Source: an uncultured virus (IMG/VR IMGVR_UViG_3300020057_000040) (Duplodnaviria; Heunggongvirae; Uroviricota; Caudoviricetes). From it: a stretch of 64,000 nt of DNA. The stretch is from IMG/VR virus record IMGVR_UViG_3300020057_000040, one strand, 5' to 3'. The notes below the pieces were generated by a model. That model saw only the letters and a program-made list of their open reading frames with translations. It was not told the origin of the DNA and did not search any database. The first letter of the stretch is position 1; every line of letters starts with the position of its first letter. A program made the position numbers and the translations under genes. This document shows positions 17,093 through 55,633 of the stretch, piece after piece.

Positions 17093-18445
17093 TTAATTGT
17101 ATGCAAAACTTCCAAAGTTAAATATTTTTTCTATGTTTTTTGTTGCGAAAACCTTTTTGCTATTTTCAACTTTTACATAAGCACCTTTGTTTTGTATTCC
17201 AACTGCCTTATGTTTTTCCCCGTCAATCCAAACTAAATCTTTTGGTTGAATACCATATCTCTGTTTTCTAATTGAAGGATAAAAACCATTTCTGTTTAAT
17301 TGAATTGCTCTATTGTTTCTATGTTTCTGAATAATTGTAGTTTGTTTACAACGTTCCTGTGTTGTTCCACCTGCAATTACAAACGCATCGTTGGCGTGAG
17401 TTTTTTCAATGTTATTTTCAATTCGTTTTACCTTTGTAATGTAGCCATAAGTTAAATTAACCTCTCCGAACTGTTCTTGCAATCCATTAATAATGAAATT
17501 TTTTGAGATGTTCATAAATGTTGAACCCTTGTACTCTCTGTTCTTTTTTAGTTTCAGTCCTTTTTTGTGTAGTTTCTTGTGGCAATCTTTGTGTAGTAAT
17601 GCTAAATTAGTTGGATTATTACTTCCTGAGTTACTTCTTTCAATTATATGATGTAAGTGCCAACCGTTTTTGTCAAATCCTTTTTCGCATAATTGACATT
17701 TACCATTTTCTCTTTCAAGAATATACGCTTTCGTGTTTTCATAACCATATAAACTTCCTTGTTGGTAATCCGTTCCACTAATCTCTGAGTTATTCATTTT
17801 CTGAATATCAAAATTTGCAATTTCAAGATTAACTTTACTTACAGGAAGATATTTGCAATAAATTTCAAACAGCCTGACGTGAGCATCAATTCTTCTTTGT
17901 GTTGAAGGTGGCAACCAATTTTCTTTTTTCTTACGATTTAAAAATCTTGGCTTCCTGTACCACAGTTTGTTTCTTCTACCTCTACGGTACATTCTTTTTT
18001 CTGTTAGTCTGTCTTTTGTTTTTGAATCAAGAGTTACTTCTCCTGAAACTAATTCTTTTTTTTCTGTTACAAATGAAAACCCAATGTGCTTGTAACCTTT
18101 GTCCATCCCGCCTGTAATTTCTTGTACTTGATTTTCACATTCAAAATTTAATTGAATTACAAACGGAAATTGTCTTACTACTTTTGCTTTACCTGCTGCT
18201 AATAATTTTCGTGCCTTTGCAGGTTTACAAGGCATTAATTTTTTACCTTCAATTGAAAGTACGAGAACGTTGACGTTAAGTCCGCCTCCTCGTTGGCGTT
18301 GATTCACTTCGGGATTGTTAGAACAGGTTTTTAAACTTGCAACACTAAGACTTTGGTCTTTGTTTAATTGCAAATCACAGTTGCTACGAGCTTGTGAAGC
18401 ACTCGTAGGTGTGTTGGTTTTCCTTCTCTGTTTTAACTTCTGCAT
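17093..18445 (-). CDS. iscB: IscB RNA-guided endonuclease (RuvC + HNH); the true start may be near 18280 because the called N-terminus overlaps the omegaRNA
   Basis: KLMP(PLMP)-KARKLL, RuvC-I GMDKG, bridge helix RMYRRGRR, RuvC-II LEIANFD, HNH CQLC..HHII..HKDCH, RuvC-III HANDA. Confidence 0.93.
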   Translation of the reverse strand: MQKLKQRRKTNTPTSASQARSNCDLQLNKDQSLSVASLKTCSNNPEVNQRQRGGGLNVNVLVLSIEGKKLMPCKPAKARKLLAAGKAKVVRQFPFVIQLNFECENQVQEITGGMDKGYKHIGFSFVTEKKELVSGEVTLDSKTKDRLTEKRMYRRGRRNKLWYRKPRFLNRKKKENWLPPSTQRRIDAHVRLFEIYCKYLPVSKVNLEIANFDIQKMNNSEISGTDYQQGSLYGYENTKAYILERENGKCQLCEKGFDKNGWHLHHIIERSNSGSNNPTNLALLHKDCHKKLHKKGLKLKKNREYKGSTFMNISKNFIINGLQEQFGEVNLTYGYITKVKRIENNIEKTHANDAFVIAGGTTQERCKQTTIIQKHRNNRAIQLNRNGFYPSIRKQRYGIQPKDLVWIDGEKHKAVGIQNKGAYVKVENSKKVFATKNIEKIFNFGSFAYN

Positions 18446-18538
18446 AATTAATTATTACTAATTTTTAAGCTCCCTAATCAACAATTTAACCCGTCCTCAC
18501 GGACAAGCCCCTATCCCTTTAGGGTAGGGGTGATTGAC
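18275..18538 (-). ncRNA. omegaRNA scaffold; guide predicted to be the flank just beyond 18538
   Basis: GTCAATCACCCC start and CACCTACGAGTGCTTCACAAGCTCGTAGCAACTGTG hairpin immediately upstream of iscB. Confidence 0.75.
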
Positions 18539-27189: not shown

Positions 27190-27214
27190 ATTAAAAAATA
27201 ATTATATTTGTATT

Positions 27215-27460
27215 ATGTTTACGTTTCGCATCGTGGTAACACGATAAGTTTTTGAGGACGTTCATTTTGGACGAGGGTTCGATTCCCTCCGATTCCACTC
27301 AGGTAGTACAAAATATTTGGGTTCGATGGGTTTTGACAGATGAAGTAAGTTATGAGAATTAGAGGCGTAAAATAGTCATAACAGGCGAAGATTTAAAGAT
27401 GGCAGCATAATCTTCCCGATAGGGAACATTTATTGCCTCCTACTTCGGTAGGTCGATAAA
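27215..27460 (+). ncRNA. ssrA: Circularly permuted (two-piece) tmRNA; outer boundaries approximate
   Basis: T-arm and 3' acceptor (GACGAGGGTTCGATTCCCTCCGATTCCA, ending 27297) precede the 5' piece GGGTTCGATGGGTTTTGAC (27319). G3:U70 pair present. Tag reading frame GEDLKMAA* at 27384-27410. TATATTTG promoter at about 27203 and terminator at about 27462-27492. Confidence 0.85.
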
Positions 27461-27932
27461 GAACCTCCTTGTGAAAACTTGGAGGTTTTTTATTTTATTT
27501 TTATTATTATATTTGTTCCATATCAAAAAAACTAAAAAATGGATTTAAAAGAATTAAAAGAACAGTTAATATTACAAGCGGATGTAATTAATGATGAGGA
27601 AACAATAAGGATTATATCTAAGGAAGAAAATACTGATGATAACGAAGAATGTATTTGGGTGTCTGATGTATTAGTTTTTTCACGTCCAAATGATAAGTTT
27701 TTAATTCGTAATTTACATAAGGATAACAAGAAGGAACATATCATCACAGATTCAGAAGGTGTAGTATTTTACTTTAAAGGTTGGAATGATGCTTGTGATA
27801 ATTTCCTTTCATCAGTAAATAATGAAGAAGAAAAAAGCGAAATATACATTAAATCATATCTTGAAACAATGGAAAGTTTCTGTAAGAGTGAAAGACAGAA
27901 ATTAGAAAAATTGAATAAGTAAAAATTTAAAC

Positions 27933-29043: not shown

Positions 29044-29458
29044 GTGAACTACCCCTACCTTAAAAGGTAGTGGCTTCGGAAACGAAGCCCAAGTTCACAA
29101 GACTAAGTTCTCAGAAACGGGAGCTACGATTGAAAACTCATAACACCAACGGTTAACGCAATAGACCGTTGCTCTGTTGATTACATTTAAGAAGGGTCAA
29201 GGGATAGGCTTGGTGATGTAGTCGAAAAAAGGTTTTTAATCATTGTCGAATTGAAGTCGGATTTTTGAAATGGTTACAGTTTCAAAATACGCATTACCAA
29301 CCGAAAGGTTGTGTTTGGTCAGAAATGACCGATTTTATTCAAATGGAACTGCAAGGATTAATTTCTTTGCAGTTTCAAATGGATTTTTTAAAAACAAAAT
29401 GAAAGCGTTGAGTTCGCTTACATCCCATAGCCTAAAGGCATAGGGGTTTTACGCTCAA
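29044..29458 (+). mobile_element. ORF-less IS200/605 element consisting of an omegaRNA (HEARO-like) plus right end
   Basis: GTGAACTACCCCTACCTTAAAAGGTAGTGGC start, CACCAACGGTTAACGCAATAGACCGTTGCTCTGTTG hairpin and CATTGTCGAA motif; right end near-identical to those at about 17030-17090 and 62711-62772. Confidence 0.8.
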
Positions 29459-30296: not shown

Positions 30297-30431
30297 ATGT
30301 TACAAGTAAAAAATATTCAAACATCAATTTGGCACACGGCAGCGATAAAAGGCTGTGCAGTCATTTCTACTACCTTTATGAATACGGAGAAGGGGAATGA
30401 TTATGCCGATGTCGGGGTAACTTGTGATTAA
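30297..30431 (+). CDS. Leader peptide of tRNA operon 1 (44 aa)
   Basis: MLQVKNIQTSIWHTAAIKGCAVISTTFMNTEKGNDYADVGVTCD; contains TGTCGGGGT, complementary to the terminator 5' arm. Confidence 0.7.
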   Translation: MLQVKNIQTSIWHTAAIKGCAVISTTFMNTEKGNDYADVGVTCD

Positions 30432-30454
30432 ATACTTGAAAAAATATTAAATCC

Positions 30455-30485
30455 AAACCCCGACAGAAATGTTGGGGTTTTTTGT
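30455..30485 (+). terminator. Attenuator terminator ahead of tRNA operon 1
   Basis: AAACCCCGACA-GAAA-TGTTGGGGTTT followed by TTTG. Confidence 0.85.
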
Positions 30486-30651
30486 TTTACAAAAGTTTTA
30501 AAATAGTTCTTTGAAAAAGTATTGAAAAAAAATTGGCTACGGCTTTTAACCAACAAACTTGCGGACGATGGTTACGGAAGCGAGAGTGTGGCAGTAGCCG
30601 ATGAAATTAATTAACGAGTGATGATATAACGGGGAGAAAGTACGACTGTAA

Positions 30652-30756
30652 ATGCAATTTCTTGTCCACTTTGCAACTTCTCAATCATCCCAATAGAGAA
30701 AATATGACACAAAAAAATGCAACTTCTTGTCCACTTTGCAATTTTCTCAAATCACC
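30652..30756 (+). repeat. Two-copy direct repeat of about 38 bp
   Basis: AATGCAA(T/C)TTCTTGTCCACTTTGCAA.TTCTCAA at about 30651 and about 30716. Confidence 0.75.
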
Positions 30757-32786: not shown

Positions 32787-32859
32787 GTTCGGGTCGTCTA
32801 AAGGTTAGGACGTTTGGTTTTCAACCAAAAAATAAGGGTTCGATGTCCCTTTCCGAATA
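32787..32859 (+). tRNA. tRNA-Glu(TTC)
   Basis: Anticodon arm TTTGG-TTTTCAA-CCAAA. Confidence 0.8.
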
Positions 32860-33996: not shown

Positions 33997-34063
33997 GTCC
34001 CTTTAGCTGTTAGGTTTATTTTTAATGAGAGGGTCATGGGTTCAAATCCCATAAGGGACACCA
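33997..34063 (+). pseudogene. Degenerate, D-arm-less tRNA-like gene (TTT-like loop)
   Basis: Intact acceptor stem GTCCCTT/AAGGGAC plus ACCA and T-arm ATGGG-TTCAAAT-CCCAT; D-arm missing. Confidence 0.65.
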
Positions 34064-34120
34064 AGAATTTTTTAAAATAAATTTTTTACTTCAAATAAAA
34101 TAAATTACATTTGCATCTCA

Positions 34121-34186
34121 ATGTACAGCACACGGGAAATAAACAATACTACATCACTTCGCCTCCGAAGACGAAGGATTATATAA
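34121..34186 (+). CDS. Arg-rich leader peptide of the tRNA-Arg operon (21 aa)
   Basis: MYSTREINNTTSLRLRRRRII; Arg codons CGG, CGC, CGA, AGA, CGA, AGG; promoter TACATTTG at 34106-34113. Confidence 0.75.
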   Translation: MYSTREINNTTSLRLRRRRII

Positions 34187-34253
34187 TTATTGTTCCCAAT
34201 CTTCATTTTTTTCAAGAAATTTTATAGGTTAATATCGGGAACGTAAATACTAC

Positions 34254-34326
34254 TTTCCCGTAGTTCAATTGGAAGAACAAAAATTTTCTAAATTTTAGGT
34301 TGTGGGTTCGACCCCCATCGGGAAAT
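34254..34326 (+). tRNA. tRNA-Arg(TCT)
   Basis: Anticodon arm AAAAT-TTTCTAA-ATTTT. Confidence 0.85.
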
Positions 34327-34339
34327 CAAAAAAAAATAT

Positions 34340-34413
34340 GGTTTCGTAGCTCAATTGGATAGAGCATCGCACTACGGATGCGAAGGTTGGGAGTTCGAGC
34401 CTCTCCGAAATCA
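34340..34413 (+). tRNA. tRNA-Arg(ACG)
   Basis: Anticodon arm TCGCA-CTACGGA-TGCGA. Confidence 0.9.
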
Positions 34414-34462
34414 CAAAAAGTTATTAACGGATAGAATTTAATCAAACTAAATTAATATATTT

Positions 34463-34534
34463 GTGGTTATAGTTTAATTGGAAAAACATCAGTTTCCTAA
34501 ATTGAAAATAAGAGTTCAAGCCTCTTTAACCATT
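34463..34534 (+). tRNA. tRNA-Arg(CCT)
   Basis: Anticodon arm TCAGT-TTCCTAA-ATTGA. Confidence 0.75.
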
Positions 34535-34541
34535 CTAAAAT

Positions 34542-35013: not shown

Positions 35014-35924
35014 TTTTTTATTATATTTGTATCTGCTAATGTAAAGCCGTCGCTATGGGTGCTGATACCGTTCTACAACGGAGAATAGTCTGTTCGCTGA
35101 TGGTCTTCGATTGACAATAGATATGAGGTGTGTATCAAAAAGTATGTTCGGGCAACACCTTTCGGTGAGCATACATTGTAAGAGAAGATAAGTTAGCAAC
35201 TTTAATTTGCCGTAAATTCGGTTGACCATTTAGGTCGAGAACCCACCAATATAGAGGTGGGTTTTTTTATTTATGTATGATTATTTTTTTACCGATTAAA
35301 TCTTTGTGATTATAAACGGATGTTTTATCAAAATCCTTTATTTCACCTTTTGAATTACACCTTGCGTAAACAGGCATTAATAAATCATTCATTGTAACTC
35401 CGCAGGTTAAAGATATAGGGTAAAATCCCCACTTCTCTTTTATCTCAATAGCGGAAGTTAATTTCACGTTTAATGTTCTTTTGTTGATTTTTTTAGTTTT
35501 CATAATATATGGTTTTTTAATATGGTATAAAGGTAAGTACCATGTGTGCAGCCAATCTGCATAGGTCTGAAACACTCGTAAATAGTGGGTTAAGGGTGGT
35601 GTTGATAACTTAATTACATAAATGTAAGTGGTATCACATATTATGATTACATTTGATTCACTTTTTAAGCCAAAAAAATGATAAAACACAGTCATTAACT
35701 AAAACCCATTTATTATGAAAAAATAAGTAAAAAAACCCCGTTATACTTCGAGAAAAAAGTAAGCCATATTAAGTTAAGATATATTAAGGTGAAATCCTTC
35801 CATTATTGGGGGGATTTTTTTTATGCCTTGATGGTAATATTTTATCAATATGAAAACCATTAAGTTACGATATGTTAATATATTTATTTGAATATGTTAT
35901 ACATTTGTTATACATTTGCTATAC

Positions 35925-55238: not shown

Positions 55239-55460
55239 GTTTTATATATTTTTTAAATTATAATTATTTAATTTTAAGTATAATAAAGGTATCTTTTAAA
55301 TCAATGTACACTAAAAGTTTATGTTTGAGTAAACTGACGTGTAATAACAGCAGATTAAACAATGTTAATGATAATTAATTAGACTGATTTTCAATTACTT
55401 AAATATTATTTTTAAAATAAATTTTTTTGTTAGGAATTAATAATTTAGTTTTGTGTCATT

Positions 55461-55532
55461 ATGAAGAATTTGAGTTTACATAGTTTATCGTATCTGTACC
55501 TGTTAAAAGGTTCGGGTGATTCTCTATTGTAA
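55461..55532 (+). CDS. Leu/Ser/Tyr/His-rich leader peptide of tRNA operon 3 (23 aa)
   Basis: MKNLSLHSLSYLYLLKGSGDSLL; promoter TAGTTTTG at 55446-55453. Confidence 0.8.
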   Translation: MKNLSLHSLSYLYLLKGSGDSLL

Positions 55533-55565
55533 ACATTATGATATAAAAATAATTAACTTACACGG

Positions 55566-55600
55566 AAAACCCTGAACCTAAAAAGTTCGGGGTTTTTTGT
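55566..55600 (+). terminator. Attenuator terminator ahead of tRNA operon 3
   Basis: AAAACCCTGAAC-CTAAAAA-GTTCGGGGTTTT followed by TTGTTTT. Confidence 0.85.
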
Positions 55601-55633
55601 TTTGTACTAATTCGTTCTTTAAAAAAAATATAT

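Follow-up and report, generated by a model that had tools for sequence, protein, structure and literature searches.

An Arg-codon leader ORF ahead of tRNA-Arg genes in a phage-like element, with predicted pairing to a tRNA acceptor strand

Three tRNA-Arg genes in a 64,000-nucleotide stretch of DNA from an uncultured virus (hereafter the window) are preceded by a leader ORF that ends in a run of Arg codons, and the RNA that follows this ORF is predicted to fold in two competing ways, one of which captures the 5′ acceptor strand of the first tRNA. This Arg unit is real and conserved and is very likely regulatory, and there is a high probability that it senses Arg in some form. Our model, which we favor while leaving ample room for error, is that the unit would be a ribosome-mediated attenuator sensing charged tRNA-Arg, with the first tRNA replacing the terminator as the expression platform. 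More tentatively, we propose a natural ribosome-operated tRNA folding switch, in which the position of the ribosome on the Arg ORF would set acceptor closure and maturation of tRNA-Arg(UCU), such that a tRNA would feed back on its own biogenesis with neither a terminator nor a protein regulator. The unit would then represent a terminator-less branch of phage-wide leaders that sample nearly the whole code.

An Arg-rich leader ORF and its conservation

The −7 box, the Arg leader ORF and the three tRNA-Arg genes were all found where an earlier note on this DNA, made from the sequence alone, had placed them (Table 1). A gap of 7 nt separates the box from the ATG at 34121. If this box occupies positions −12 to −5 (PMC9723704, excerpt), transcription would start near 34118 and yield a near-leaderless mRNA with a 5′ leader of ~1–3 nt. 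In Bacteroidota, leaders shorter than 10 nt are rare (3.7%; PMC7366714, excerpt) and leaderless transcripts amount to 5.5% (PMC9723704, excerpt). By itself the −7 motif occurs at chance level in the window (119 matches versus 119.4 expected), so that it is conservation that supports the promoter call: 12 of 15 promoter positions are invariant in three genomes, versus 21 of 45 in the upstream spacer. TTTG is present 18–19 nt upstream of the box in both relatives described below, and TTTT in the window.

Table 1. Coordinates of the Arg unit and of two sister units in the window
Feature	Position	Strand	Remarks
Sister unit A	30297..30490	+	Leader of 44 codons, none of them for Arg, followed by an intrinsic terminator; conserved in L205 and L387
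Bacteroidota sigma-A −7 box (TAnnTTTG), TACATTTG	34106..34113	+	Motif, and conservation in L205 and L383
Leader ORF, 21 codons, MYSTREINNTTSLRLRRRRII then stop	34121..34186	+	Six Arg codons; 61/66 nt invariant in three genomes
Segment 1 (codons 5–10)	34133..34148	+	Could pair with segment 2 or the tRNA 5′ strand if no ribosome covers segment 1
Hairpin over Arg run	34153..34179	+	Predicted in all three homologs
Segment 2, TATTGTTCCC	34188..34197	+	Directly after stop codon; conservation and footprint folding
Pyrimidine-rich loop, T7 run at 34206–34212	34198..34235	+	No terminator stem before T7; 20/36 positions invariant; might serve in Rho loading
Segment 3, CGGGA(A/G)C	34236..34245	+	Complementary to segment 2 (ON) and to the tRNA 5′ acceptor strand (OFF)
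tRNA-Arg(UCU)	34254..34327	+	ARAGORN; Rfam 62.4 bits; segment 4 (5′ acceptor strand), 34254–34260; segment 5 (3′ acceptor strand), 34319–34325
tRNA-Arg(ACG)	34340..34414	+	ARAGORN; Rfam 62.7 bits
tRNA-Arg(CCU)	34463..34535	+	ARAGORN; Rfam 62.2 bits
Sister unit C	55446..55604	+	−7 box 7 nt before a 23-codon Leu/Ser/Tyr/His leader, then an intrinsic terminator; homolog in L388

The five different Arg codons that had been reported for the leader are indeed present: CGG at codon 5, CGC at 14, CGA at 16 and 18, AGA at 17 and AGG at 19. Those in the run spanning codons 14–19 are the codons read by the ACG (read as ICG), UCU and CCU anticodons of the unit, whereas none of its tRNAs matches the CGG at codon 5. 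RRRR or at least six Arg residues occur in only one of the 387 ATG-started window ORFs of 15–30 codons, and that one is the leader; the binomial probability of at least six Arg in 20 codons is 4.5e-5 given window codon use and 3.8e-4 given base composition. The leader uses codons that are rare in window genes (CGG 5, CGC 12, CGA 25 and AGG 47 per 9,987 codons); the counts for CGT and AGA are 94 and 164. The leader is short and conserved, with an excess of codons that match the function encoded downstream. No Rfam leader, T-box or riboswitch family matched positions 34106–34253, either at the gathering score or at E values up to 5. Just upstream, at 33997–34060, the window carries a degenerate second tRNA-Lys (36.5 bits) with a D arm shortened by ~12 nt; this gene is intact in both relatives.

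The unit is known from three independent but related genomes, namely those of the window, a metagenome contig (L205) and L383, and from one 172-nt contig piece besides; L203 does not differ from the window and was not counted as independent. Both relatives keep the promoter, the 7-nt gap, the ORF and its placement ahead of tRNA-Arg genes, the sets of which are UCU/ACG/ACG in L205 and UCU/ACG/ACG/CCU in L383. Conservation of the Arg run in relatives had been suggested as a check, and all six Arg codons, as well as the start and stop codons, are identical in the three genomes. Invariant positions number 12 of 13 in segment 2, 7 of 11 in segment 3 and 41 of 73 in tRNA-Arg(UCU), or 30 of 59 for this tRNA without its acceptor. 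Four of the five changes in the ORF alter the amino acid and one is synonymous, which provides no coding signature. A freshwater contig of depth 2.9 spans 34020–34191 with three differences, one of which, Arg5 to Leu, may be an error.

We also considered the possibility that there is no regulator here, and that a structured untranslated leader or a duplicated tRNA-Arg relic acquired its Arg codons from a GC-rich hairpin. Segments 2 and 3 do copy tRNA acceptor strands, the Arg run sits in a hairpin, the substitutions are not of the coding type, the promoter motif is at chance level and the start is near-leaderless. However, a functional tRNA would be expected to outlast a relic, and here it is segment 2 that is far better conserved than the tRNA body. 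Moreover, start, stop and frame are retained, the leader is unique among the short ORFs and the leader/tRNA match is family-wide (see below), which makes this explanation improbable.

A DNA search of the phage collection returned tRNA matches only, with 0 of 245 records covering 80% of the query, and at least half of the query words were found in 10 of 24 sequencing runs, all 10 being DNA microbial-mat sets and five of them flagged as a possible source; the leader was covered by X12 only among four small-share runs examined, and an RNA-labelled run did not cover it. A generic pattern for tRNA-Arg(UCU) picked out 120 viral loci (judged by eye, duplicates counted in), none of which had a −7 box at most 12 nt from an ORF carrying a three-Arg run. 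The nearest cases were L118 (RRR, no box) and L079, in which a −7-like box accompanies an ORF of 13 codons, four of them scattered Arg codons, 133 nt before a viral tRNA-Arg(UCU); the latter ORF is possibly an unrelated Arg leader or a chance occurrence. Leader-pattern searches of viral contigs gave two and one chance matches, without tRNAs, and one of 38 matches from a scan of genomes was true. The promoter–ATG–Arg pattern matched no more than control level in 16 virus records, and no Arg-only leader was seen at tRNA-Arg loci from 21 records or at 27 loci of a 707-aa protein.

Predicted competing pairings of the leader RNA and tRNA-Arg(UCU)

In agreement with the earlier note, which saw no strong intrinsic terminator, the stretch from the leader ORF to the tRNA-Arg genes yielded no call of a terminator-like site. 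One alternative pairing put forward in that note, GAAGGATT/AATCTTC, did not hold up, as it is window-specific and weak, the best fold of the stretch (−2.0 kcal/mol) using another pairing. We rejected it as a terminator since it is neither conserved nor the preferred fold, and a ribosome at the stop codon would cover its 5′ arm. The other, GTTCCC/GGGAAC, proved to be real and conserved, and is half of a putative switch in which segment 3 pairs with segment 2 (2:3, ON). The second half, which had been missed, is the capture of the 5′ acceptor strand of tRNA-Arg(UCU) by segment 3 (3:4, OFF). What follows the 3:4 hairpin is the start of the tRNA D arm rather than a U run.

The 3:4 hairpin has predicted energies of −10.1, −13.0 and −14.3 kcal/mol in the three homologs. 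Its eighth pair is G-C, A-U and G-C, a two-sided change, and its sixth is A-U or G-U; the seventh position is a C-U mismatch in the window. The inner stems differ in sequence among the homologs with pairing retained, and the differing spacers outdid shuffled versions in all but 96, 75 and 23 of 2,000. When capture was ranked over 1,220 distinct tRNA starts, with the window copy entered as L203, the homologs took ranks 1, 3 and 10, and 19 starts passed the threshold. An extended inner stem of 2:3 was rejected as evidence, being no better than shuffles (1663, 1020 and 1504 of 2,000). Segment 1 is invariant and hence provides no covariation evidence. The single change within codons 13–20 lies in the loop of the Arg-run hairpin, which is a candidate polymerase pause hairpin. 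Elsewhere in the window, the tRNA-Glu at 32787 (seen as L203:2361) has an upstream flank that likewise folds into a hairpin with the 5′ strand of the tRNA (−10.6 kcal/mol), and from 32730 a short ORF runs toward this gene.

Ribosome-footprint folding, carried out with three footprint sizes and three homologs, indicated that segment 2 is covered by a ribosome at the stop codon and free when the ribosome is on Arg14–Arg18. In the modelled nascent RNA the probability of 2:3 was 0.99–1.00 with the A site on Arg14–Arg19 and 0.00–0.20 at the stop, where that of 3:4 was 1.00. The ON and OFF end states are 1.1–2.3 kcal/mol apart without a ribosome, so close that kinetics and tertiary structure would decide between them, and a ribosome at the stop favors OFF by 4.0–4.6 kcal/mol. 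At equilibrium with the ribosome on Arg17–19, the probability of 3:4 was 0.26–1.00 in the window, 0.36–1.00 in L205 and 0.69–1.00 in L383. Because 3:4 thus competes in the stalled state, more so in the two relatives, ON would need kinetic trapping or tertiary stabilization beyond the model. The cloverleaf was not recovered in full-length equilibrium folds (acceptor stem at most 0.24). In the models, then, ribosome position chooses between mutually exclusive hairpins, although at equilibrium the two are incompletely separated for late Arg codons.

These folds suggest the following mechanism. Host RNA polymerase would start the near-leaderless transcript and a ribosome would load on the leader ORF. 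With rapid reading of Arg codons 14–19, the ribosome would arrive at the stop codon and cover segment 2, which after release could be taken by segment 1. Segment 3 would then pair with the emerging 5′ acceptor strand of tRNA-Arg(UCU) and block the acceptor stem, and the misfolded precursor would be no substrate for RNase P. The exposed C/U-rich tract and the unfolded tRNA may let Rho or nucleases end the transcript, thereby silencing the later tRNAs and, where present, the ArgRS-like gene described below. Conversely, a ribosome stalled in the Arg run would leave segment 2 free, 2:3 would form first and the cloverleaf could close. What the leader senses would be a drop in usable tRNA-Arg, through host nuclease attack, undercharging or rare-codon demand, more than a lack of arginine in itself; tRNA loss or undercharging appears the likelier signal since extra tRNA does not cure an arginine shortage.

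Capturing the first tRNA would not alone account for control of the remaining ones. As the leader has codons for each of the three anticodons, and one genome has a synthetase gene next in the unit, control of the whole unit by Rho or decay, acting downstream of the misfold, seems needed. Involvement of Rho is possible. An alternative is that output is set by Rho alone, with the stalled ribosome or 2:3 masking a rut site beyond the stop codon, in which case 3:4 would be a by-product. This would fit the missing intrinsic terminator, the codons for all three anticodons, the U-rich tract with C>G after the stop in all three homologs, the Rho gene found in the metagenome-assembled genome (MAG) holding L383 and in a Bacteroides control, and the precedent of speF orf34 (PMC6386406, excerpt). 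However, the tract is short (48–49 nt between stop and segment 3) and mildly C-rich, with raw C/G counts of 6/4, 9/3 and 8/3, and Rho alone leaves unexplained the strongest capture among the 1,220 tRNA starts, the two-sided change and the differing paired spacers. We regard control by Rho alone as unlikely, and retain acceptor capture as the probable output. Transcription reading through from tRNA array A, which lies behind sister unit A, could bypass the Arg promoter, since no terminator was called in between.

Sister leaders, ArgRS-like genes and the element

Each of the two sister leaders in the window matches its own tRNA set, and both lack Arg. Behind unit A lie genes for Thr, Met, Ile, Asn, Asp, Trp, Glu, Gly, Cys, Ala, Val and Lys tRNAs, and behind unit C those for His, Ser, Ser, Tyr, Leu and Leu. 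Unlike the Arg unit, both units contain the GC stem and U tract of an intrinsic terminator. In unit A a modelled anti-terminator inside the ORF end holds the 5′ arm of the terminator until a ribosome covers it, its probability falling from 0.99 to 0.00 at codon 36–37; unit C switches less cleanly in the same kind of model (0.87 to 0.3–0.4). The layout predicted for the Arg switch is similar to that of unit A. Upstream of Pro/Pro/Phe genes of a relative, where Pro and Phe had been expected beforehand, we found a Phe/Pro/Gln leader with a terminator. A tRNA-Gln to match this leader was not found, so that the partition of amino acids among the leaders of this relative is incomplete. Between terminator A and tRNA-Thr, at 30641–30750, the window has two or three imperfect repeats with the core CTTGTCCACTTTGCAA, which are also present in L387.

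To collect the wider family, we picked ATG ORFs of 14–65 codons ending 40–65 nt before a hairpin and T run ahead of a tRNA set; 76 automated picks became 37 units once look-alikes were removed, and some picks (L124) are probably wrong. In these 37 units, which are related to each other, have tRNA sets cut by locus ends and were picked by a rule fixed after the sister leaders were known (with array A of this clade manually stripped of its Arg genes), the fraction of leader residues that belong to the downstream tRNA set is 0.52 versus 0.31 ± 0.016 when permuted, and 0.97 of tRNA types are found in the leader versus 0.70 ± 0.04 (0 of 20,000 for each). Leader Arg content is 9.2% in the 16 units with tRNA-Arg versus 3.9% in the 21 without (p=1.5e-4). 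The Arg unit is outside this set because it has no terminator. Leader-plus-terminator units that match tRNA arrays also occur in phages of 42–51% G+C (L122, L167, L193 and L283); L283 is the cultured Ralstonia phage RsoM2USA and is practical for bench tests.

The sister leaders also bear on a further explanation, a general sensor of translation stress or drugs in which ribosomes would stall on the basic RLRRRR peptide, making the match to Arg secondary. Macrolide-responsive leaders are known to contain an Arg-x-Arg arrest motif. The near invariance of the leader peptide and the response of known tRNA arrays to translational stress (PMC8421152, excerpt) are in keeping with such a sensor, but codon identity is invariant too, and the sister leaders of this element fit their respective tRNA sets without Arg; we consider such a sensor very improbable.

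A 391-aa ORF begins 16 nt downstream of the final tRNA-Arg gene of L383 (L387:9086-10261) and has arginine-tRNA ligase as its best match. Its scores are below the cut-offs of TIGR00456 (E=1.7e-10; 39.9 bits versus 261.65) and PF00750 (18.3 versus 23.3), and we call it ArgRS-like from the order of its motifs and its best matches. This short family (~392 aa) has 609 relatives, several of them called ArgRS by their sources. The protein is found in 43 viral loci, 12 of which have tRNA-Arg, and in three (L428, L442 and L455) an Arg-rich leader and an ordinary terminator precede tRNA-Arg and the short ArgRS. Among 401 Bacteroidota genomes it was found in G026, the MAG that contains L383, with no match in the other 400. 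An HNH-type ORF replaces the ArgRS-like gene after the tRNA-Arg genes in the window and in L205. In the same contig as L383, a 431-aa class I synthetase-like ORF (L484:4322-5614; PF00133, PF09334) sits between the His/Ser/Ser/Tyr/Leu unit and tRNA-Leu(CAA); it is probably LeuRS-like, parallel to the ArgRS after the Arg unit. Conservation, the ArgRS-like gene of the relative and the 37-unit match together give good support to the leader/tRNA match and the ribosome-sensing role that the earlier note had put forward.

The element is phage-like, probably a jumbo phage. The window has a G+C content of 31%, 22 tRNA/tmRNA genes by ARAGORN and phage-family matches for many of its genes. The closest long relative, L383, is a 375,071-bp contig (G026:C16) within a Bacteroidota MAG and has the tRNA order of the window. 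Of its ORFs, 77 of at least 280 aa were compared with PHROGs and 50 of these with Pfam; the contig encodes weak tail-fibre matches, polyvalent proteins, homing endonucleases, RtcB, two RNA ligases, a tRNA nucleotidyltransferase (CCA-adding enzyme) and synthetase-like proteins. No terminase, capsid, sheath or portal was recognized among the 77 ORFs, and PF03237 and PF04984 were not found in G026. Other features of the window include a permuted (two-piece) tmRNA with the tag GEDLKMAA at 27206–27501, a similar one being present in L001, and HEARO RNAs at 29044–29261 and 18298–18538, the latter adjoining an HNH-type ORF (17093–18445) and the former followed by none. At 35022–35266 a −7 box, a ~175-nt non-coding stretch, a closing stem GCTAA/TTAGC and a terminator mark a candidate small RNA, with ends conserved in L001:1792-1985, a divergent middle and no Rfam match.

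Relation to known systems

Codon-matched leaders bear on the question of why phages carry tRNAs, as they imply on-demand tRNAs when a given pool fails; they also make the idea that phages replace what the host destroys directly testable. The Arg unit, at 140 nt, is testable in Flavobacterium or Bacteroides reporters. In full-text searches, which covered few subscription papers, we found no title or abstract start on leader-peptide control of tRNA genes or on natural ribosome-controlled tRNA maturation, nor did we find acceptor-strand capture described as an attenuator output.

The Arg unit would act like a leader-peptide attenuator without an intrinsic terminator, and differs in its target, tRNA genes, and in its probable output, acceptor capture. 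Like the attenuators of amino acid and aminoacyl-tRNA synthetase operons (trpL, hisL, pheL and thrL), it has a short ORF in which the cognate codons come late and, as in trpL-type attenuators, predicted exclusive 1:2, 2:3 and 3:4 pairings set by ribosome position. In contrast to these, it would control tRNA genes of a phage-like element, would be near-leaderless, and has a 3:4 pairing without a U tract, whose 3′ arm is the acceptor strand of the tRNA itself. Leader-peptide attenuators also include pheM-pheST, and tnaC and mgtL represent the Rho-dependent type. The theory of leader-peptide transcription attenuation has been treated (PMC1183508, excerpt), and clues for attenuator leaders exist in Flavobacterium (PMC9723704, excerpt).

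In Salmonella speF orf34, compared here by description rather than by sequence, Arg codons in a leader ORF and ribosome pausing likewise select an RNA fold, and output is via Rho and RNase rather than an intrinsic terminator, as in our proposal; it differs in controlling an mRNA and in having a long leader, two Arg codons and no tRNA in the switch (PMC6386406, excerpt). Mycobacterial polycysteine sORF attenuators share with the Arg unit a leaderless ORF, a C-terminal run of a single amino acid, a stalled ribosome that blocks an inhibitory duplex and several independent units forming a regulon, but their duplex hides a ribosome-binding site, whereas that of the Arg unit would hide a tRNA acceptor strand (10.1101/834739, excerpt). 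The mobile L-arrays of the Anabaena trn operon type also contain homing endonucleases and are turned on under translational stress; PMC8421152 has no occurrence of 'attenuat' or 'leader', and control is reportedly by a repressor, TrcR (PMC10272220, excerpt), unlike in the Arg unit. Finally, in a synthetic RNase P riboswitch a switchable leader structure likewise governs tRNA 5′ maturation (PMC7897497, excerpt). That riboswitch is engineered, ligand-driven and hides the 5′ leader, whereas the Arg unit is natural and would be driven by the ribosome and invade the acceptor stem.
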